Below are positions 27,496 to 37,605 of a stretch of DNA of 37,605 nt, one piece after another. The notes beneath the pieces were generated by a model. It did not search any database. It was not told where the DNA came from and worked only from the letters and a program-made list of their open reading frames with translations. This stretch comes from a virus. Position numbers and translations under genes: made by a program. How positions within the stretch are numbered: position 1 is the stretch's first letter; every line of letters begins with the position of its first letter. Where the stretch lies: the UHGV virus genome UHGV-0180039. One strand, written 5' to 3'.

Positions 27496-28146
27496 ATGAA
27501 AACTCAATTGATGGGAGAGCGCATTCGCGCTCGGAGAAAAGAACTCAAGATCAGGCAGGCCGCACTTGGAAAGATGGTCGGCGTGTCTAATGTTGCCATA
27601 TCTCAGTGGGAACGCTCTGAGACAGAGCCAAATGGAGAGAATCTTCTCGCCCTGGCTAATGCGTTGAAGTGTTCCCCTGACTATCTGATGAAAGGAGAGG
27701 AAAGTCTTTCAAACATTGCCTATCACAGTAGGCATGATCCAAGAGGGTCATACCCTCTGATTAGCTGGGTGAGCGCAGGATGCTGGATGGAAGCTGTAGA
27801 ACCATATCATAAGCGTGCAATAGATAACTGGTACGATACAACCGTAGACTGTTCAGAAGATTCGTTTTGGTTGGACGTGAAGGGAGACTCAATGACGGCT
27901 CCGGCCGGTCTCAGTATCCCTGAAGGAATGATAATACTCGTCGATCCTGAAGTAGAGCCGCGTAACGGGAAACTGGTAGTTGCAAAGCTCGAAGGAGAAA
28001 ACGAGGCAACTTTCAAGAAGTTAGTTATTGATGCAGGCAGGAAGTTTCTAAAACCACTTAACCCACAATATCCGATGATCGAGATCAACGGAAACTGCAA
28101 AATCATCGGCGTAGTTGTCGATGCAAAACTAGCAAACCTTCCATAA
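27496..28146 (+). CDS. c2: Immunity repressor C2 (P22 type; LexA/S24-like C-terminal domain)
   Basis: 216 aa MKTQLMGERIRARRKELKIRQAALGKMVGVSNVAISQWERSETEPNGENLLAL..., near-identical to P22 c2 from memory; C-terminal Ser/Lys autocleavage-type domain (DVKGDSM ... VAKL). Confidence 0.95.
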   Translation: MKTQLMGERIRARRKELKIRQAALGKMVGVSNVAISQWERSETEPNGENLLALANALKCSPDYLMKGEESLSNIAYHSRHDPRGSYPLISWVSAGCWMEAVEPYHKRAIDNWYDTTVDCSEDSFWLDVKGDSMTAPAGLSIPEGMIILVDPEVEPRNGKLVVAKLEGENEATFKKLVIDAGRKFLKPLNPQYPMIEINGNCKIIGVVVDAKLANLP

Positions 28147-28194: not shown

Positions 28195-28267
28195 ACTTAA
28201 GTTACGAAAGAAAATTTAAGTTTTCTTCAAAAATACTCTTGACCATTAATTAAAGAGATCTTAAATT
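28195..28267 (+). promoter_or_regulatory. OL operators and PL promoter
   Basis: Operator ATTAAAGAGATCTTAAAT (28249-28266) plus weaker upstream half-site matches (ATTTAAG); -35 TTGACC (28239-28244), 17-nt spacer, -10 TAAATT (28262-28267). Confidence 0.55.
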
Positions 28268-28755: not shown

Positions 28756-29055
28756 ATGACAGTAGTCATTACATATCTGGCTGACGATAACGCCAGAAAT
28801 CGCCGCAGAGCACGCAGACAGGCTCAACGTGAACAGGCAATGCAAGAGCAGCGACTGGCGCGAAAAATTGCGCTAAAGCTCTCTGGTTGCGTCAGAGCAG
28901 ATAAAGCAGCATCACTCGGAAGCCTTTGCTGCAAGAAGGCAGATGAAGTCGAGCGTAAACAGAACCGTATTTACTACCGCAAGCCACGCAGTGAAATGGG
29001 TGTGACTTGTGTTGGTCGCCAGAAAATGAAATTAGGCAGCAAACCACTTATTTGA
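28756..29055 (+). CDS. N: Antiterminator N (phage 21/lambda-like C-terminus, distinct arginine-rich N-terminus)
   Basis: 99 aa; arginine-rich motif DDNARNRRRARRQAQREQ at the N-terminus; C-terminal ...RKIALKLSGCVRADKAASLGSL.CKKADEVERKQNRIYY.KPRSEMGVTCVGRQKMKLGSKPLI resembles phage 21 N from memory; SD GGAGG upstream. Confidence 0.85.
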   Translation: MTVVITYLADDNARNRRRARRQAQREQAMQEQRLARKIALKLSGCVRADKAASLGSLCCKKADEVERKQNRIYYRKPRSEMGVTCVGRQKMKLGSKPLI

Positions 29056-29063
29056 GGTGAGAT

Positions 29064-29534
29064 ATGACAAAATCATGGAGCGTACCTTTTCCTGAATCAG
29101 AAACTGAACATGATGGAATGCCTGTTTTCTGGAGATTCCAAGCGACAGTTGAAGAAGATGGAATCAAAATATTCGCACTTCAATATATAGCTTTTCATCA
29201 GACAGAGCATTATGCATGGTTGGTTCCTGCGCATTGGATTGTTAATTTTAAACCAGCACCAAATCAGTGGTTACAGGAATGGAAACAAAGGAGAAATAGA
29301 TATGCAATTAAGAAAGTAGCAAAAAATGCAGAAAGATCTTTTGCATTCCCAACGAAGAAACTTGCCATTGAGAGTTTATTGCGCCGGAAGAAATACCATT
29401 TAATGAGAATCAAACAAGATTTGGCTGTTGTATCAACTCTTGTTGATGGGATGAAGAATATTGATACATCAACACCAGATATTGAATATAACTTTGGGCA
29501 CAACCAAGAAACAGAAAATTGGGTATTTTATTAG
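29064..29534 (+). CDS. Hypothetical 156-aa protein; first gene of an AT-rich moron downstream of N
   Basis: ATG with SD GAGGTGA; visibly AT-rich codon usage; no family recognised. Confidence 0.5.
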   Translation: MTKSWSVPFPESETEHDGMPVFWRFQATVEEDGIKIFALQYIAFHQTEHYAWLVPAHWIVNFKPAPNQWLQEWKQRRNRYAIKKVAKNAERSFAFPTKKLAIESLLRRKKYHLMRIKQDLAVVSTLVDGMKNIDTSTPDIEYNFGHNQETENWVFY

Positions 29535-29638
29535 TACGAGTAAGCACTGTGTATTCATTCCAACGAGTGAATACACGGAGCAATGTCGCTCGTAACTAAA
29601 CAGGAGCCGACTTGTTCTGATTATTGGAAATCTTCTTT

Positions 29639-29664
29639 GCCCTCCAGTGTGAGGGCGATTTTTT
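29639..29664 (+). terminator. Intrinsic terminator between the two moron genes
   Basis: GCCCTC-CAGTGT-GAGGGC followed by GATTTTTTAT. Confidence 0.65.
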
Positions 29665-30053: not shown

Positions 30054-30146
30054 GCGCGGCTTTACCGCATACCAATAATGCTTCACGAGAGGTGTTTATT
30101 CATGAGCGTAAACGCTGATTAATGAACGCAGTTGATAGGATATAAA

Positions 30147-30659
30147 ATGGCATTTATAAAGATTCTTGAATTAATTTCCCTAAGTGAGATTAATAATGTT
30201 GTCAAATATAACCCTATTTCTGGTGAGTTCACATGGCTAAAATCTTATGGAGCAAGGAAGATAGGTGGAACTGCCGGAACAATAACAACAAGCGGCTACT
30301 TAAGGATTTTCATTAACGGAAGACACTATGCTGCACATAGACTTGCATGGATTATCACTTTCGGTGTTGAGCCTGAAGGTATTATCGACCATATAAATGG
30401 CATAAAGACAGATAACAGAATTTGCAATCTGAGGCTTGCAACTTACTCACAGAATTCAATGAATAGTAAAATAAACACCCTCAACAAATCAGGTTGCAAA
30501 GGAGTCACATGGAAGAAGGAAAGTAGAAAGTGGGCTGCCTATGGGAAATTAAACGGGAAGAAAAAACATCTAGGGTACTTTAATGAATTAGAAGATGCCA
30601 AAAAAGCTTACTGCGACTTTGCCAGAAAGCATCACGGCGAATTCTACAGGAGCAAATAA
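30147..30659 (+). CDS. HNH homing endonuclease (HNH_3-type motif plus AP2-like DNA-binding domain)
   Basis: Motifs HRLAWIITFG...IDHINGIKTDNRICNLRL and AP2-like GVTWKKESRKWAAYGKLNGKKKHLGYFNELEDAKKAY. Track start 30132 is TTG; ATG at 30147 with an AGGA SD is more likely. Confidence 0.8.
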   Translation: MAFIKILELISLSEINNVVKYNPISGEFTWLKSYGARKIGGTAGTITTSGYLRIFINGRHYAAHRLAWIITFGVEPEGIIDHINGIKTDNRICNLRLATYSQNSMNSKINTLNKSGCKGVTWKKESRKWAAYGKLNGKKKHLGYFNELEDAKKAYCDFARKHHGEFYRSK

Positions 30660-33207: not shown

Positions 33208-33977
33208 GCAAGATTGATTATCAGGCACTGCGTGCTAAGGCAGAAAAAGCAACGTGTGGTGTATGGTCGCTCGAATATGGAGAGAGCCGATTTGATGGTG
33301 ATGATGCGCTAATTCATCGTGAAGTTGCTGGATATATTCCCATTTGCAGAATTGAAGGAGCGCATCCAGAAAGCGGTTTCGATGAAGATTTCCAAATGGA
33401 ACAGCAGGCCAATGCTGAATTCATCGCAGCAGCCAGTCCAACTACCGTACTGGCACTGCTGGATGAACGGGAAAGAAACCAGCAATACATAAAACGCCGC
33501 GACCAGGAGAACGAGGAGATTGCGCTAACGGTAGGGAAGCTGCGTGTTGAGCTGGAAGCAACAGAGAACAACCTTATTGATAGTGAATGCCATGTTGCTG
33601 AACTGGAAGAAGCGCTACGCGATAAGCAGGTGTTACTTGAAGCCTCAGAAAAGCGCAACGCAAAATTACAAAGCGAGAATGCATACATCCGCAACCGGTT
33701 CAAAGAACTGGACCTGTTAATCGGGAAAAACATTCTGGTCATGCAGGCTGCCATTATCGAATGGCAGGCAACTGGCGACGCTAAGAGCGGACTGGCATGG
33801 ATTTATAACACACTGTTTGGCCCAGGCGAATTGCCGGACGAATCTGAGCAAGATGCTCAGGCCTACTTTAATCGCAAATATGCACCGATTGACGAAAAGC
33901 TTATGGCGCTTCACAAGTGGTTTTGGGAACAAAGTGAAGCCGAGCGCGCCGCTGGCATCAAGGAGGAGTCTGAGTGA
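33183..33977 (+). CDS. Ead/Ea22-like protein
   Basis: GTG start; N-terminus [25 protein letters not shown] is characteristic of Ead/Ea22-like prophage proteins; coiled-coil middle. Confidence 0.6.
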
Positions 33978-34468
33978 TGGTCATTTCACCTATAACGCTG
34001 AAAGCGGCGCAGGAATTTATCGCACAGCACCACCGACACAATAAACCACCAGTGGGGCATAAATTCAGCATTGGTCTGAGAAATAATGCCGGAGAATTGA
34101 TAGGTGTGGCGACAGCTGGTCGACCTGTTGCACGACATTTCGACGATGGATTAACGCTTGAAGTAAATCGCACATGTACCACAGGAGAACGCAACGCTAA
34201 CAGCGCGCTTTATGGTGCTATCTGGCGGGCAGCAAAAGCTATGGGTTATCAACGTTGTATTACGTACACCCAGGCAGATGAATCAGGAGCATCTCTTCGC
34301 GCAGCTGGTTTTGTTCGTGTGAAAGAGCTTCCTCCAAGAAAAAGCTGGGCGGAATCAAGCGTCGCCCTGCGGAGTAAACGCGATCCGGTCGGAAACGGTG
34401 GTATTCCTCGTGTGCTCTGGGAAATCAGGAGAATGAGTACCACTGGCATTCGCATCAAAGGAGAGTGA
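33974..34468 (+). CDS. Hypothetical 164-aa protein
   Basis: ORF overlapping the Ea22-like stop; no family confidently recognised. Confidence 0.45.
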   Translation: MMVISPITLKAAQEFIAQHHRHNKPPVGHKFSIGLRNNAGELIGVATAGRPVARHFDDGLTLEVNRTCTTGERNANSALYGAIWRAAKAMGYQRCITYTQADESGASLRAAGFVRVKELPPRKSWAESSVALRSKRDPVGNGGIPRVLWEIRRMSTTGIRIKGE

Positions 34469-34760: not shown

Positions 34761-35600
34761 ATGACAACTTTCACCGACAAAAAACTGATTAAAGAAATCA
34801 AAGAACGAATCAGCAGCCTAGAGGTTCGAGACGATATTGAGCGCCGTGCTTATGAAATTGCTCTGGCATCGCTGGAAGCAGAGCCTGTTCTGTATCAGTC
34901 CTGCACTCGCCCCACCTGGAATAGCGGTGTTCCGTGGACGGAATGGAAAGAACGAAGTCGTGAGTGCTACGAAGACGATTTGCGCTTTACAGACACGCCT
35001 GACCATGCCGGTTGGATATACAAATGTCGAAAACTATATACCAATCCGCCAGCGCCGATAGCGTTGGAGGCTATTGAAAATGCAATTGAATACATTCGCA
35101 GTATCGCTTTTCACATAGATGAAGACGATTACCACGGCAAACATATTGCGTATTTCATGCGACAAGCATTGGCCTGGCTGGAAGGGTATTCATGCAGCGA
35201 CGACAGACTGGGTAAAGCCGAGAATCAAACAGTACACGGCAACCAGGCAGCCGAATCCAATCGCGGTAATGAGTGGACCGGCAATCCTGATATTGATAAC
35301 GCCATCATCATGCTCGGCATAGATACGGCGGAAAGTTACGATGATGACCGTATTGAGGCTGTTAAGGCTGTTTTGCGTAGACTGGCTGGCAACTCTCCGG
35401 TAACTCCGGATAGTTGGATAAGCTGTAGTGAGCGAATGCCGAACGACGCGCAGTGGTGCGTAGTTGACGCCGCAGACGCGTATTACGTGCAATGCTGGTC
35501 TGAAGGTCAAGGATGGCTTGGAGATGACATCAGCCTACGTAATTGCGATGTAATCAGATGGATGGCGATTCCTGAACCACCGCAGCAGGATGGTGAATGA
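34761..35600 (+). CDS. DUF551-like C-terminal domain protein
   Basis: 279 aa; C-terminal segment WISCSERMPNDAQWCVVDAADAYYVQCW...WMAIPEPP fits the DUF551 pattern (W..C.E.LP) from memory. Confidence 0.5.
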   Translation: MTTFTDKKLIKEIKERISSLEVRDDIERRAYEIALASLEAEPVLYQSCTRPTWNSGVPWTEWKERSRECYEDDLRFTDTPDHAGWIYKCRKLYTNPPAPIALEAIENAIEYIRSIAFHIDEDDYHGKHIAYFMRQALAWLEGYSCSDDRLGKAENQTVHGNQAAESNRGNEWTGNPDIDNAIIMLGIDTAESYDDDRIEAVKAVLRRLAGNSPVTPDSWISCSERMPNDAQWCVVDAADAYYVQCWSEGQGWLGDDISLRNCDVIRWMAIPEPPQQDGE

Positions 35601-35757
35601 TGCCGCCAGTTAAAGTTGTGATTATCACTTTGGTGATGATAGTGATTGCGAGAATCATGTCTGGTGAAATTGGGTGGATATGGTAATGGCTAAGGTAGCA
35701 GCAGAGCTCAACTAACAATCCTCGCACTCGCGGGGATTTATTTTATATGGGGATAAT

Positions 35758-36558
35758 ATGACCATCCACTTTCACGGCAGCCCAATATGGGGGGATGAGC
35801 ATGCCCCTACAGATATGCTGATTAAAGCCCTTTACCGTGATGGTGGGGCTTTTGTTTCATTTGCCAGACCAGAGCAGATGAAAAAGATTGCCATGTTCCC
35901 TTGTGATATACGCCTTGATAACGGCGCTTTTAGCGACTGGATGAAAGCATTAAAGAAAGGCACTCCGGTAGACTGGAGTAAGAGACGAGCAAAATTCTAC
36001 GACTTTGTTGGGAAGTGGTTCAGCAGAATTGAATGGTTTCTTATACCTGACGTTATCGAAGGGACAGAGGCAGAAAACGACGAGCAGATTGAGTTGGTTC
36101 CTGATTGGCTAAAATCAAAAGCGGTTCCGGTCTGGCATACCGACGAATCAATTGAACGTCTTTTACGCCTTTCTGGAAAATTTGAATGGGTGGCGATTGG
36201 ATGCTGCGGCCCACACAGGCACATACGCTCTAAATGGTGGGAACAGAGAATGGATGAAGTTTTTACTGAGATTTATATCAATCGTAATTTGAAAGTGAAA
36301 ATTCATGGTCTTCGAATGCTCGACGTGAGAGTTCTTGGTATGTATCCGTTCGCCAGTGCGGATTCTACTAATGTTGCTGTTAACGTACCGAAGACAGAGA
36401 AGCGATTTCCTGAGATTACCGACAAACTGGCACGTACAGCTGTACTTCGCGCTGCTATTGAAAAGGTGCATCCGCCATCGATATCAGCATGGGTAGACAG
36501 AAAGATGAGAGAGCCGGCGCAAGCCGGTTTTTTATTTGAATTCACCGACGCCGCTTAA
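35758..36558 (+). CDS. Hypothetical 266-aa protein (unassigned, enzyme-sized)
   Basis: ATG start; followed by a weak hairpin plus T-rich tract; no family confidently recognised. Confidence 0.5.
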   Translation: MTIHFHGSPIWGDEHAPTDMLIKALYRDGGAFVSFARPEQMKKIAMFPCDIRLDNGAFSDWMKALKKGTPVDWSKRRAKFYDFVGKWFSRIEWFLIPDVIEGTEAENDEQIELVPDWLKSKAVPVWHTDESIERLLRLSGKFEWVAIGCCGPHRHIRSKWWEQRMDEVFTEIYINRNLKVKIHGLRMLDVRVLGMYPFASADSTNVAVNVPKTEKRFPEITDKLARTAVLRAAIEKVHPPSISAWVDRKMREPAQAGFLFEFTDAA

Positions 36559-36602
36559 TGCGGATTTCTTTTATCTGAACTCGCTACGGCGGGTTTTGTT
36601 TT

Positions 36603-36914
36603 ATGGAGATGATTATGGCCTGTTCAACATTCAACCATCTAACGTTACAGAAATACCAGCCAGACCCTGAAGATTTATGCTCACTGTGTGGCGGAAATCA
36701 TGGTAAAGCCGCCATGATCGAATGTAAGGACAAAATCCACATTTGCCTTAATTGCGTTGATGTCCTCGTTGATATCAAAAATGAGAGAGAAGATAAAAAG
36801 CGTAGCGAGGCTATTCGCGCATTAGATTCATGGATGCGAGATGGGTATAGTGCTGCGCAAATTTATGACTTCGCAATATCAAAAGGCGAAATACCAGGAG
36901 TGCGCATCGAATAA
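36603..36914 (+). CDS. Small Cys-rich (zinc-ribbon-like) protein
   Basis: CSLCGG...HICLNCVD; ATG at 36615 (GGAG upstream) may be the true start. Confidence 0.45.
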   Translation: MEMIMACSTFNHLTLQKYQPDPEDLCSLCGGNHGKAAMIECKDKIHICLNCVDVLVDIKNEREDKKRSEAIRALDSWMRDGYSAAQIYDFAISKGEIPGVRIE

Positions 36915-36956
36915 GACGTAACCAATATTCGAATTGAAGAACTGAAAGAACACCAA

Positions 36957-36978
36957 GCCGCCTGATGGCGGTTTTTTA
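36957..36978 (+). terminator. Intrinsic terminator
   Basis: GCCGCC-TGAT-GGCGG followed by TTTTTTATT. Confidence 0.55.
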
Positions 36979-36991
36979 TTGGAGACAAGAA

Positions 36992-37336
36992 ATGTCAGAT
37001 TTGGCTATGAAGGTTTTGAAATGGCAATCGACTGGCGATGTCGGCATCAGTAGCGCAACTCTTGCCTCAATCGCATGTGGCCTGAAAAAGAATATCTATG
37101 GTCATCACTTCGGCGCTCCACATGACGCAGCAGATTTCCGACGATGCGTTGCACTTGTTGAGCAGATTCCAGAAATCAGAGATTCATTCGACAAGGTTGC
37201 AAAGCGCGTTCCGGCATTCAAAGGAATCCTCAACGAATGGGATTCACTCGTTGCTCTGTTGAAGTCTGAAATGAAGATACACGGAAACAAAGCACCAGAG
37301 ACTTACAGAAGAATCAGCGAGCTACGCAAGGACTAA
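36992..37336 (+). CDS. Hypothetical 114-aa protein
   Basis: Track ORF starts at 36965 inside the terminator hairpin; in-frame ATG at 36992 with GGAGA SD is more plausible. Confidence 0.45.
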   Translation: MSDLAMKVLKWQSTGDVGISSATLASIACGLKKNIYGHHFGAPHDAADFRRCVALVEQIPEIRDSFDKVAKRVPAFKGILNEWDSLVALLKSEMKIHGNKAPETYRRISELRKD

Positions 37337-37373
37337 CGCCTCACACTCGATGAGGCCTGTACATATCTGATAG

Positions 37374-37398
37374 AGCCGCTATATGGCGGTTTCTTTTT
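37374..37398 (+). terminator. Intrinsic terminator
   Basis: AGCCGC-TATATG-GCGGT followed by TTCTTTTT; an extra hairpin (GCCTCA/TGAGGC) lies just upstream. Confidence 0.5.
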
Positions 37399-37413
37399 GC
37401 CTGGAGAATTAAG

Positions 37414-37605
37414 ATGACCGATACCAGCCTGATTCCTGAGAAAGAAGTGATGAACAAGCTCGGTGTTTCATCACGTCAGACAATCTGGAACTATACCAAA
37501 CGGCACGGATTTCCGAAGCCAGTCAGAACCCACCCCAAATCATACCTTCGTGAAGCTGTTGAAGGGTGGATTCTTAACGGTGGCGTTAATCAGAAATGCT
37601 CCTGA
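37414..37605 (+). CDS. AlpA-family DNA-binding protein, probable excisionase
   Basis: 63 aa; LGVSSRQTIWNYTKRHGFPKPVRT is an AlpA/Xis-type HTH; last gene before the expected integrase, which lies outside the window. Confidence 0.7.
   Translation: MTDTSLIPEKEVMNKLGVSSRQTIWNYTKRHGFPKPVRTHPKSYLREAVEGWILNGGVNQKCS

Follow-up and report, generated by a model that had tools for sequence, protein, structure and literature searches.

The early-left operon of the prophage genome UHGV-0180039, a stretch of 37,605 nucleotides (nt) referred to here as the window, ends in three small genes set among hairpins with T-runs, just before the excisionase gene xis. The first of them, gene A, very probably encodes a guanine transglycosylase of the DpdA family. 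Judged by comparison with related genomes, genes A, B and C are interchangeable cassettes slotted between hairpins that are resident in phage lambda. The explanation favoured here, held with reasonable but far from complete confidence, is that the cassettes occupy the end of an N-antiterminated pL operon and that DpdA would modify phage DNA with preQ0 supplied by the host. An earlier note on the window had described the three genes as unassigned, each with its own terminator, and as separately acquired cargo. All three open reading frames (ORFs) proved to be real, and each is followed by a hairpin with a T-run:

35758-36558, plus strand: gene A, very probable DpdA-family guanine transglycosylase, similar to tRNA-guanine transglycosylase (TGT), of the 'singleton' type without preQ0 synthesis genes, 266 amino acids (aa)
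36615-36914, plus strand: gene B, 99-aa protein with an N-terminal C4 zinc ribbon (C22, C25, C44, C47), PHROG 3680, unknown function
36992-37336, plus strand: gene C, 114-aa all-helical protein, the most widespread of the three

A DpdA-family enzyme

Remote homology search and structure prediction, both of which the earlier note had proposed for the 266-aa protein, lead to the phage DpdA family and to a TIM barrel. The gene A protein matches PHROG 887 ('queuine tRNA-ribosyltransferase') with E 1e-102, and the DpdA of phage CAjan belongs to the same PHROG (E 8e-96); deletion of dpdA in CAjan abolishes dPreQ0 in the phage DNA (PMC6884629). When a profile of 34 homologues was aligned with CAjan DpdA by hhalign, the probability was 95% (E 3.5e-8, 193 columns), and the segments LDNGAFS, VWH and SADST of gene A were paired with LDSGAFS, CFH and SCDSS of CAjan, respectively. 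The AlphaFold model is a confident TIM barrel with the TGT-type fold, scoring 89.8 in the predicted local distance difference test (pLDDT).

Residues D54, D98, H127 and D202 are invariant in the 34 homologues, down to 44% identity, and the surrounding D54-N-G-A-F58 (DxGxF) and SADST motifs, the latter containing D202, are invariant or nearly so. By motif, the counterparts of the four residues in bacterial DpdA are the catalytic D95, D130, H181 and D256; there, D95 serves as general acid/base with the gating F99, H181 recognizes the base and D256 is the nucleophile (PMC10164549). H127, in VWH, aligns with CFH of CAjan; D98, in IPDV, lies five columns off the CAjan LD in the hhalign alignment. 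The protein contains three cysteines only (C49, C158, C159) and no CxCxxC, and is devoid of the structural Zn site that TGT and bacterial DpdA possess. A test for tRNA-guanine transglycosylase proper (PF01702) gave no match to the family model and no PDB sequence or profile match to TGT.

Named relatives include gp29 of phage HK106 (YP_007151699), which is 98.5% identical, and the DpdA of Salmonella phage 7-11, which is 58% identical. In Hutinet et al. 2019, HK106 gp29 is listed (Supplementary Data 1) with phages that have DpdA but no preQ0 genes, and the same authors recognized a gamma-proteobacterial cluster of 'singleton' DpdAs (PMC6884629). The gene is thus no longer unassigned: it belongs to the DpdA family and its near-identical HK106 orthologue is already in a published list. 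It also has homologues with an established role internal to the phage, as DpdA modifies phage DNA, which runs counter to the idea of cargo. RefSeq names the HK106 orthologue queuine tRNA-ribosyltransferase; WP_024236193.1, from E. coli, and the other copies examined in this species carry only the name 'hypothetical protein', and could take a DpdA-family annotation.

Gene A is under strong purifying selection. The ratio of non-synonymous to synonymous substitution rates (dN/dS) is 0.065 against a homologue of 87% identity (dS 1.4) and 0.13 against HK106, and copies are intact in 79 of the 82 genomes that carry the gene. In E. coli ST3 (locus L011, 3001-3800) and similar genomes (H48-H50) a frameshift splits dpdA into two annotated ORFs, and the ST3 locus also has a G-to-T change in the stem of the upstream hairpin; the split gene of ST3-type genomes looks like occasional pseudogenisation.

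Source of the base and nature of the target

No preQ0 genes were detected in the window by tblastn with FolE, QueD, QueE, QueC and YhhQ of CAjan (nothing below E 0.3), and none for preQ0 synthesis is located within 6 kb on either side of the dpdA-like gene in 80 related viral loci. Clues to base and target come from relatives. A YhhQ/Vut_1 gene lies directly before, or overlaps, the dpdA-like gene in 22 of the 80 loci, 21 of which are among homologues of 54-87% identity. YhhQ/Vut_1 is the preQ0 transporter family; the protein of the relatives matches PF02592 with 37.5 bits, over the Pfam threshold, and is 30% identical to the predicted preQ0 transporter of CAjan. Furthermore, a set of relatives (P0006; 460 aa, 42 member sequences, 76% identical) carries the DpdA-like protein in an in-frame fusion to a phage Dam adenine methyltransferase (PF05869, E 4e-58). 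The yhhQ-dpdA two-gene unit or the fusion is seen in IMG/VR loci L013 (3040-4883), L042-L065 and L083. Together, the yhhQ neighbour and the Dam fusion suggest a salvaged 7-deazaguanine as the base and DNA as the target.

The E. coli host has a full Q pathway and makes preQ0. When the DpdA of phage 9g is expressed alone in E. coli, dPreQ0 is inserted from host preQ0, and the DNA of phage 7-11 contains dADG at 50 per 10^6 nt (PMC6884629). On balance the evidence tilts, if only slightly, towards a gene A enzyme that modifies the phage's own DNA with a host-derived 7-deazaguanine.

Cassettes between resident lambda hairpins

The elements that delimit the three genes are the following; z scores of hairpins compare the folding energy with that of shuffled sequence.

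35717-35738, plus strand: hairpin with T-run upstream of dpdA, -13.1 kcal/mol, z -5.1, same sequence as predicted lambda t3
35734-35746, plus strand: left copy of the 13-nt direct repeat GGATTT[A/C]TTTTAT flanking the dpdA cassette, from alignment of the lambda ea8.5-orf55 spacer with both gene A flanks
36508-36533, plus strand: terminator-like hairpin inside the 3' end of gene A, 11 pairs and T6, -16.8 kcal/mol, z -5.0
36562-36574, plus strand: right copy of the direct repeat, GGATTTCTTTTAT, part of a weak hairpin at 36551-36575
36577-36596, plus strand: hairpin with T-run after gene A, -11.0 kcal/mol, z -3.8, identical to predicted lambda t4
36915-36976, plus strand: 3' remnant of lambda orf55 (last ~48 nt) and t5 hairpin, 62 nt identical to lambda
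36955-36974, plus strand: hairpin with T-run after gene B (t5), -13.4 kcal/mol, z -3.7
37373-37392, plus strand: hairpin with T-run between gene C and xis, 8 pairs, tail CTTTTTGC, -10.5 kcal/mol, z -2.0

This terminator punctuation is unusual for the operon: across its whole length, plus-strand sites with at least eight pairs are confined to one at 29637 and to the interval 35717-37392. Terminator-like sites number 16 between 30000 and 37605, against 7.8 +/- 2.9 expected from shuffles, and 40 between 18000 and 37605, against 19 +/- 5.3. Conservation of the hairpins extends over hundreds to thousands of genomes. Two of the three terminators originally placed after the genes, the second and the third, are where the earlier note had put them; the first (36551-36575) is a 4-bp hairpin of -6.8 kcal/mol and z -1.7, lying between two strong ones.

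The hairpins at 35717, 36577 and 36955 are t3, t4 and t5, respectively, of the lambda terminators predicted by Bloch et al. 2014 (PMC4195576, Table 4); the first also matches positions 1483-1512 of the lambda locus L012. In lambda, t3 and t4 stand in tandem, back to back, and t5 follows orf55. Alignment of lambda with both flanks of gene A places the insertion of the dpdA cassette within the T-tail of t3, between t3 and t4. The 52-bp linker that holds the t4 hairpin (36562-36613) occurs in 2133 of 5426 complete E. coli genomes and is 98% identical to lambda 29288-29339, between ea8.5 and orf55. As the 62 nt after gene B are identical to the end of lambda orf55 and t5, gene B has replaced the 5' part of orf55. 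The stop codon of lambda orf55 lies inside the loop of the t5 hairpin. Gene C and the fourth hairpin are accommodated between t5 and xis.

Contexts were compared across HK106, E. coli W, 2012C-4431, ST3 and several draft contigs. Upstream of gene A, homology starts exactly at the stop codon of the preceding gene, at least five different genes being found in that position; the contexts then have 46 nt in common, the 35717 hairpin among them. On the downstream side, homology extends through the 36577 hairpin to a GGAGA Shine-Dalgarno sequence and then diverges into B, C or a lambda-orf55-like gene. The breaks between contexts fall exactly at the linkers made of hairpin, T-run and Shine-Dalgarno sequence. 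Among the 5426 complete E. coli genomes, 82 harbour gene A (strain W included), 317 gene B and 963 gene C, and the A-B junction of the window is present in only four. The downstream neighbour of dpdA varies from genome to genome, and the genes therefore assort independently. The notion of separately acquired cargo thus holds in so far as the cassettes are independent of one another; it fails as regards terminators imported with each gene, since three of them are t3, t4 and t5 of lambda. The hairpins are probably terminators with cassettes inserted between them, although this reading is held with some reserve.

The hairpin at 36508-36533 is the strongest of the region and is located 25 nt before the dpdA stop codon, within the last 50 nt of gene A. 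Homologues of 76-87% identity, in which dS is saturated, keep the stem intact and differ in the loop alone, by synonymous changes. In the DpdA-Dam fusion, divergence begins right after the T-run of this hairpin. Should the hairpin act as a terminator, transcripts that are not antiterminated would lack a stop codon.

Expression and proposed mechanism

A simple consensus scan of the plus strand from 35600 to 37605 found no sigma-70-like promoter upstream of A, B or C, although weak or activator-dependent promoters could escape such a scan. The spacers before the genes are 46-80 nt long and are filled by hairpin, T-run and Shine-Dalgarno sequence. In lambda, the genes from exo to xis are transcribed from pL, early after infection or induction (PMC4195576). 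Together these observations suggest that A, B and C are delayed-early genes transcribed by polymerase that N has modified. The earlier note had implied moron-like cargo expressed in the lysogen. The absence of sigma-70-like promoters before the genes, together with their position downstream of an N-like antiterminator in the early-left operon, therefore lends no support to expression in the lysogen.

The following course of events is proposed. During lytic growth, antiterminated transcription from pL would read through the hairpins and DpdA would be made. With one conserved aspartate as nucleophile and another as acid/base, the enzyme would replace part of the guanine in replicated phage DNA by preQ0 from the host or by a closely related 7-deazaguanine. 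The resulting low level of 7-deazaguanine in progeny DNA may confer partial protection from restriction in the next host. Without N modification of RNA polymerase, the hairpins would prevent expression of the distal genes and xis; they may also offer lambdoid phages short conserved joints for the exchange of cassettes.

Alternative explanations

A number of points weigh against this proposal. The gene A protein has no match in Pfam or NCBIfam (E <= 0.1) and no PDB sequence match (CAjan DpdA has no Pfam match either), and the hhalign register around D98 is ambiguous. The E. coli clade of dpdA has lost its YhhQ partner, and some dpdA copies are frameshifted. Only 0.02% of G is modified in phage 7-11 and none in phage Orion, and the modification status of DpdA-only phages was considered hard to predict by Hutinet 2019 (PMC6884629). 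Literature searches retrieved no experimental work on the DpdA of HK106 or of other lambdoid phages. The TGT fold can also act on tRNA or, as in Cap10, on a protein N-terminus. The promoter scan is a simple consensus match; terminator function, read-through under N and silence in the lysogen are predictions made from the sequence.

Alternatively, the TGT-like enzyme may act elsewhere: on host tRNA queuosine, on a protein to which it would attach, or from which it would take off, a deazaguanine as Cap10 does in the type IV cyclic oligonucleotide-based antiphage signalling system (CBASS), or on incoming foreign DNA modified with 7-deazaguanine, in defence or counter-defence. A TGT scaffold has indeed been repurposed for protein deazaguanylation (bioRxiv 10.1101/2025.04.06.647259), the clade forms a cluster of its own for which Hutinet 2019 raised possible functional divergence, and a position adjacent to int and xis is typical of accessory genes. 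Another substrate is nevertheless unlikely. The nearest sequence relatives are phage DpdAs rather than tRNA TGTs or Cap10, there is no Pfam TGT match and the Zn subdomain with which TGT holds tRNA is absent, and neither Cap9 or CD-NTase neighbours nor a PADLOC match accompany the gene. The fusion to a DNA adenine methylase points to DNA, and phage 7-11, whose enzyme is 58% identical, has deazaguanine in its DNA.

The int-proximal region is a known site of accessory genes, and this fits the reading implied by the earlier note, in which the genes would be three morons with promoters of their own, expressed in the lysogen to the benefit of the host, for instance through phage defence or restriction alleviation. 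Each gene is bounded by terminators and assorts independently, a Lar restriction-alleviation gene lies near gene A in one context, and distant members of the gene A family also end in a terminator. Three morons are unlikely all the same: the scan detected no sigma-70-like promoter upstream of A, B and C, whose spacers of 46-80 nt are already occupied, and three of the hairpins are the resident t3, t4 and t5 of lambda instead of imports. The genes are moreover co-oriented with the N-antiterminated operon and downstream of its start, PADLOC returned no defence-system match for A, B, C or the Mom-like and DUF551 proteins encoded upstream, and the known role of DpdA is DNA modification in the lytic phase.

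Decaying or neutral passengers without current function, with hairpins that matter only as recombination scars, are very improbable. The frameshifts in some dpdA copies, the many truncated or chimeric variants of B and C, the loss of the YhhQ partner and the lambda orf55 remnant after gene B would agree with decay; strong purifying selection on A (dN/dS 0.065 at dS 1.4) and C (0.09-0.18), catalytic residues that are invariant in 34 homologues down to 44% identity, confident predicted models (pLDDT 90 and 93) and intact dpdA in 79 of 82 genomes argue against it. It is also improbable, if a little less so, that a solitary DpdA in a temperate phage strips 7-deazaguanines from the DNA of superinfecting Queuovirinae, marks the lysogen chromosome or acts on deazaguanylated defence proteins, or that its production is gated. 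In the gated variant, the terminator 25 nt before the gene's own stop codon would allow a stop-containing mRNA only under N antitermination, conceivably a fail-safe that keeps a chromosome-modifying enzyme off in lysogens. Modification of the phage's own DNA by an antiterminated, lytically expressed DpdA is the reading retained in what follows.

Genes B and C

Genes B and C are separate cassettes and are not linked to DpdA. The start of gene B at 36615 (99 aa) is favoured by the Prokaryotic Genome Annotation Pipeline (PGAP) and by the PHROG alignment, the alternative being 36603 (103 aa). The zinc-ribbon-like character that had been noticed in this protein was borne out by a nearly invariant CxxC-x18-CxxC, followed by a variable C-terminal half. 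An exhaustive profile search of 1.84 billion proteins yielded 23 small relatives and no ClpX. The protein resembles the ClpX zinc-binding domain (PF06689) only weakly, with 15.6 bits in Pfam against a cut-off of 27 and a PDB profile E of 0.2-0.85, and homology to it is not supported. Two further identities were rejected: kinship with Ea8.5, the zinc protein that lambda encodes at the corresponding position, for which the hhalign probability is 0.4%; and a partner or Zn-donating subunit of DpdA, given 317 genomes with B against 82 with A and the A-B junction in only four.

Gene C has a GGAG Shine-Dalgarno sequence, and a longer start at 36965 would fall inside a hairpin. Its predicted fold is confident and without PDB neighbour. 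Databases contain many chimeras in which part of gene C is joined to Ea22, Kil, Erf or dATP/dGTP pyrophosphohydrolase (P0171, P0173, P0184, P0192, P0205, P0207), which suggests that deletion or recombination has often had one end point within C.

The phage and its early-left operon

A prophage of E. coli VG38-53E1 (NZ_CP128578.1), integrated beside sbcB, shares 99.9% identity with the window. The genes are arranged as in a P22-like lambdoid phage, with structural and late genes on the minus strand. The early-left operon, on the plus strand, is approximately 9 kb long and runs from genes for N-like, HNH, RecT, Gam-like, Ea22, Mom-like and DUF551 proteins to the AlpA-type xis at the end of the window; the three cassette genes belong to the distal 1.9 kb of this pL-type operon. 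The elements that define it are:

27496-28143: cI-like repressor
28239-28267: pL-like promoter, TTGACC-17-TAAATT
28756-29052, plus strand: N-like antitermination protein at the head of the early-left operon, PHROG 271, E 5e-37
37414-37605, plus strand: AlpA-type excisionase/helix-turn-helix gene (xis), PHROG 66, E 2e-8

According to the annotation of E. coli VG38-53E1, the integrase gene follows xis on the opposite strand, outside the window, and adjoins sbcB. The two genes are convergent, and int overlaps the last 20 nt of xis (window 37586-37605; locus L002, 8587-9765). This arrangement precludes co-transcription of int with xis from pL, unlike the situation in lambda.

A strong terminator-like site (29637-29658) stands after the first gene downstream of N. 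On the way from the N-like gene to the recombination genes (RecT/Gam-like), the operon contains an HNH endonuclease gene (30132-30656; PHROG 99, E 1e-68). The ea genes upstream of the cassettes overlap tightly, as had been stated in the earlier note, or abut, with end and start positions of 33977/33974, 34468/34470 and 34757/34761. A Mom-like candidate for DNA modification (33974-34468, 164 aa) is encoded 1.3 kb upstream of dpdA; it matches the NCBIfam XF1762 family (E 2e-61), PHROG 1384 ('Mom-like') and, under the cut-off, Pfam Mom (E 3.5e-5). As this candidate and dpdA share one operon, the phage may carry two DNA-modification genes; the two occur together in only few related loci (L018, L020, L030).

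In the window, an unbroken 279-aa DUF551 ORF spans 34761-35600; the PGAP annotation of the RefSeq genome that is 99.9% identical shows in its place a partial pseudogene and a shorter DUF551 gene (L002, 5762-5887 and 6158-6601). Next to it, just before hairpin t3, a 28-codon ORF (35600-35686) overlaps, through ATGA, the stop codon of DUF551, and its product, MPPVKVVIITLVMIVIARIMSGEIGWIW, is very hydrophobic. In HK106 a different 29-aa ORF occupies this place. The possibility that the 28-aa hydrophobic ORF is a remnant of the lost YhhQ gene was discarded, in view of the lack of tblastn similarity and the different small ORF in HK106.

Comparison with known systems

The singleton DpdA phages HK106, SfI and Salmonella phage 7-11 (Hutinet 2019, Nat Commun 10:5442) share with the window the gamma-proteobacterial cluster and the lack of preQ0/G+ synthesis genes. 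Whereas HK106 is HK97-like, the phage described here is a P22-like podovirus prophage at sbcB with an AlpA-type xis, and the genes downstream of dpdA differ. Phage 7-11 is large and lytic, its dADG amounting to 0.02% of G; the present phage is temperate.

The DpdA1 enzymes of Queuovirinae such as CAjan and 9g have in common with gene A the PHROG, a homologous TIM-barrel core, the DxGAF and xDS motifs and a conserved histidine, and both are devoid of the Zn-binding CxCxxC. They are only ~18% identical to the gene A protein, whose C-terminal ~60 residues remain unaligned. In CAjan and 9g, dpdA resides in a preQ0/G+ cluster (folE, queD, queE, queC and a yhhQ-like gene) adjoining replication genes, in lytic phages with 25-30% of G modified. 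In contrast, the gene described here is solitary and located in the int-proximal accessory region of a temperate phage. Bacterial DpdA, from the Dpd restriction-modification system (PDB 7UI4), is 413 aa long, compared with 266 aa here, has four insertions, carries a Zn site of structural type (CxCx2Cx22H) and depends on the ATPase DpdB (PMC10164549). These features are all absent here; the PADLOC library includes Dpd models and gave no Dpd match.

The arrangement has a precedent in the ea8.5-orf55-xis region of lambda (Bloch et al. 2014, PLoS One 9:e108233), in which the hairpins t3, t4 and t5 with their flanks occupy the same place in the pL operon before xis. In lambda t3 and t4 are adjacent and orf55 alone precedes xis, whereas here dpdA lies between t3 and t4, gene B takes the place of most of orf55, and gene C with the fourth hairpin separates t5 from a different, AlpA-type xis. 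The morons described by Hendrix and Juhala, consisting of promoter, gene and terminator, are likewise discrete, terminator-bounded and independently assorting single-gene units in lambdoid phages; unlike them, the cassettes described here have no recognizable promoter of their own and are co-oriented in, and apparently dependent on, the antiterminated early operon.

Significance

Both the gene family and the orthologue group are already in the literature from in silico work, and the gene in the window is another member. The observations that sharpen the picture are the yhhQ-dpdA unit, the Dam fusion, the insertion between t3 and t4 with a direct repeat, and the terminator-like hairpin before the dpdA stop codon. 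The two-gene unit and the fusion make the hypothesis more specific: the base would be salvaged preQ0 and the target DNA. The locus also illustrates precisely how accessory cassettes of lambdoid phages are fitted between terminator hairpins already in place, a short direct repeat marking the joint. Phages with DpdA only are the largest group in the 2019 survey of phage 7-deazaguanine genes (PMC6884629). The clade examined here is carried by lambdoid and P22-like E. coli prophages that lend themselves to genetic work, and phage HK106 and the laboratory strain W are among its carriers.

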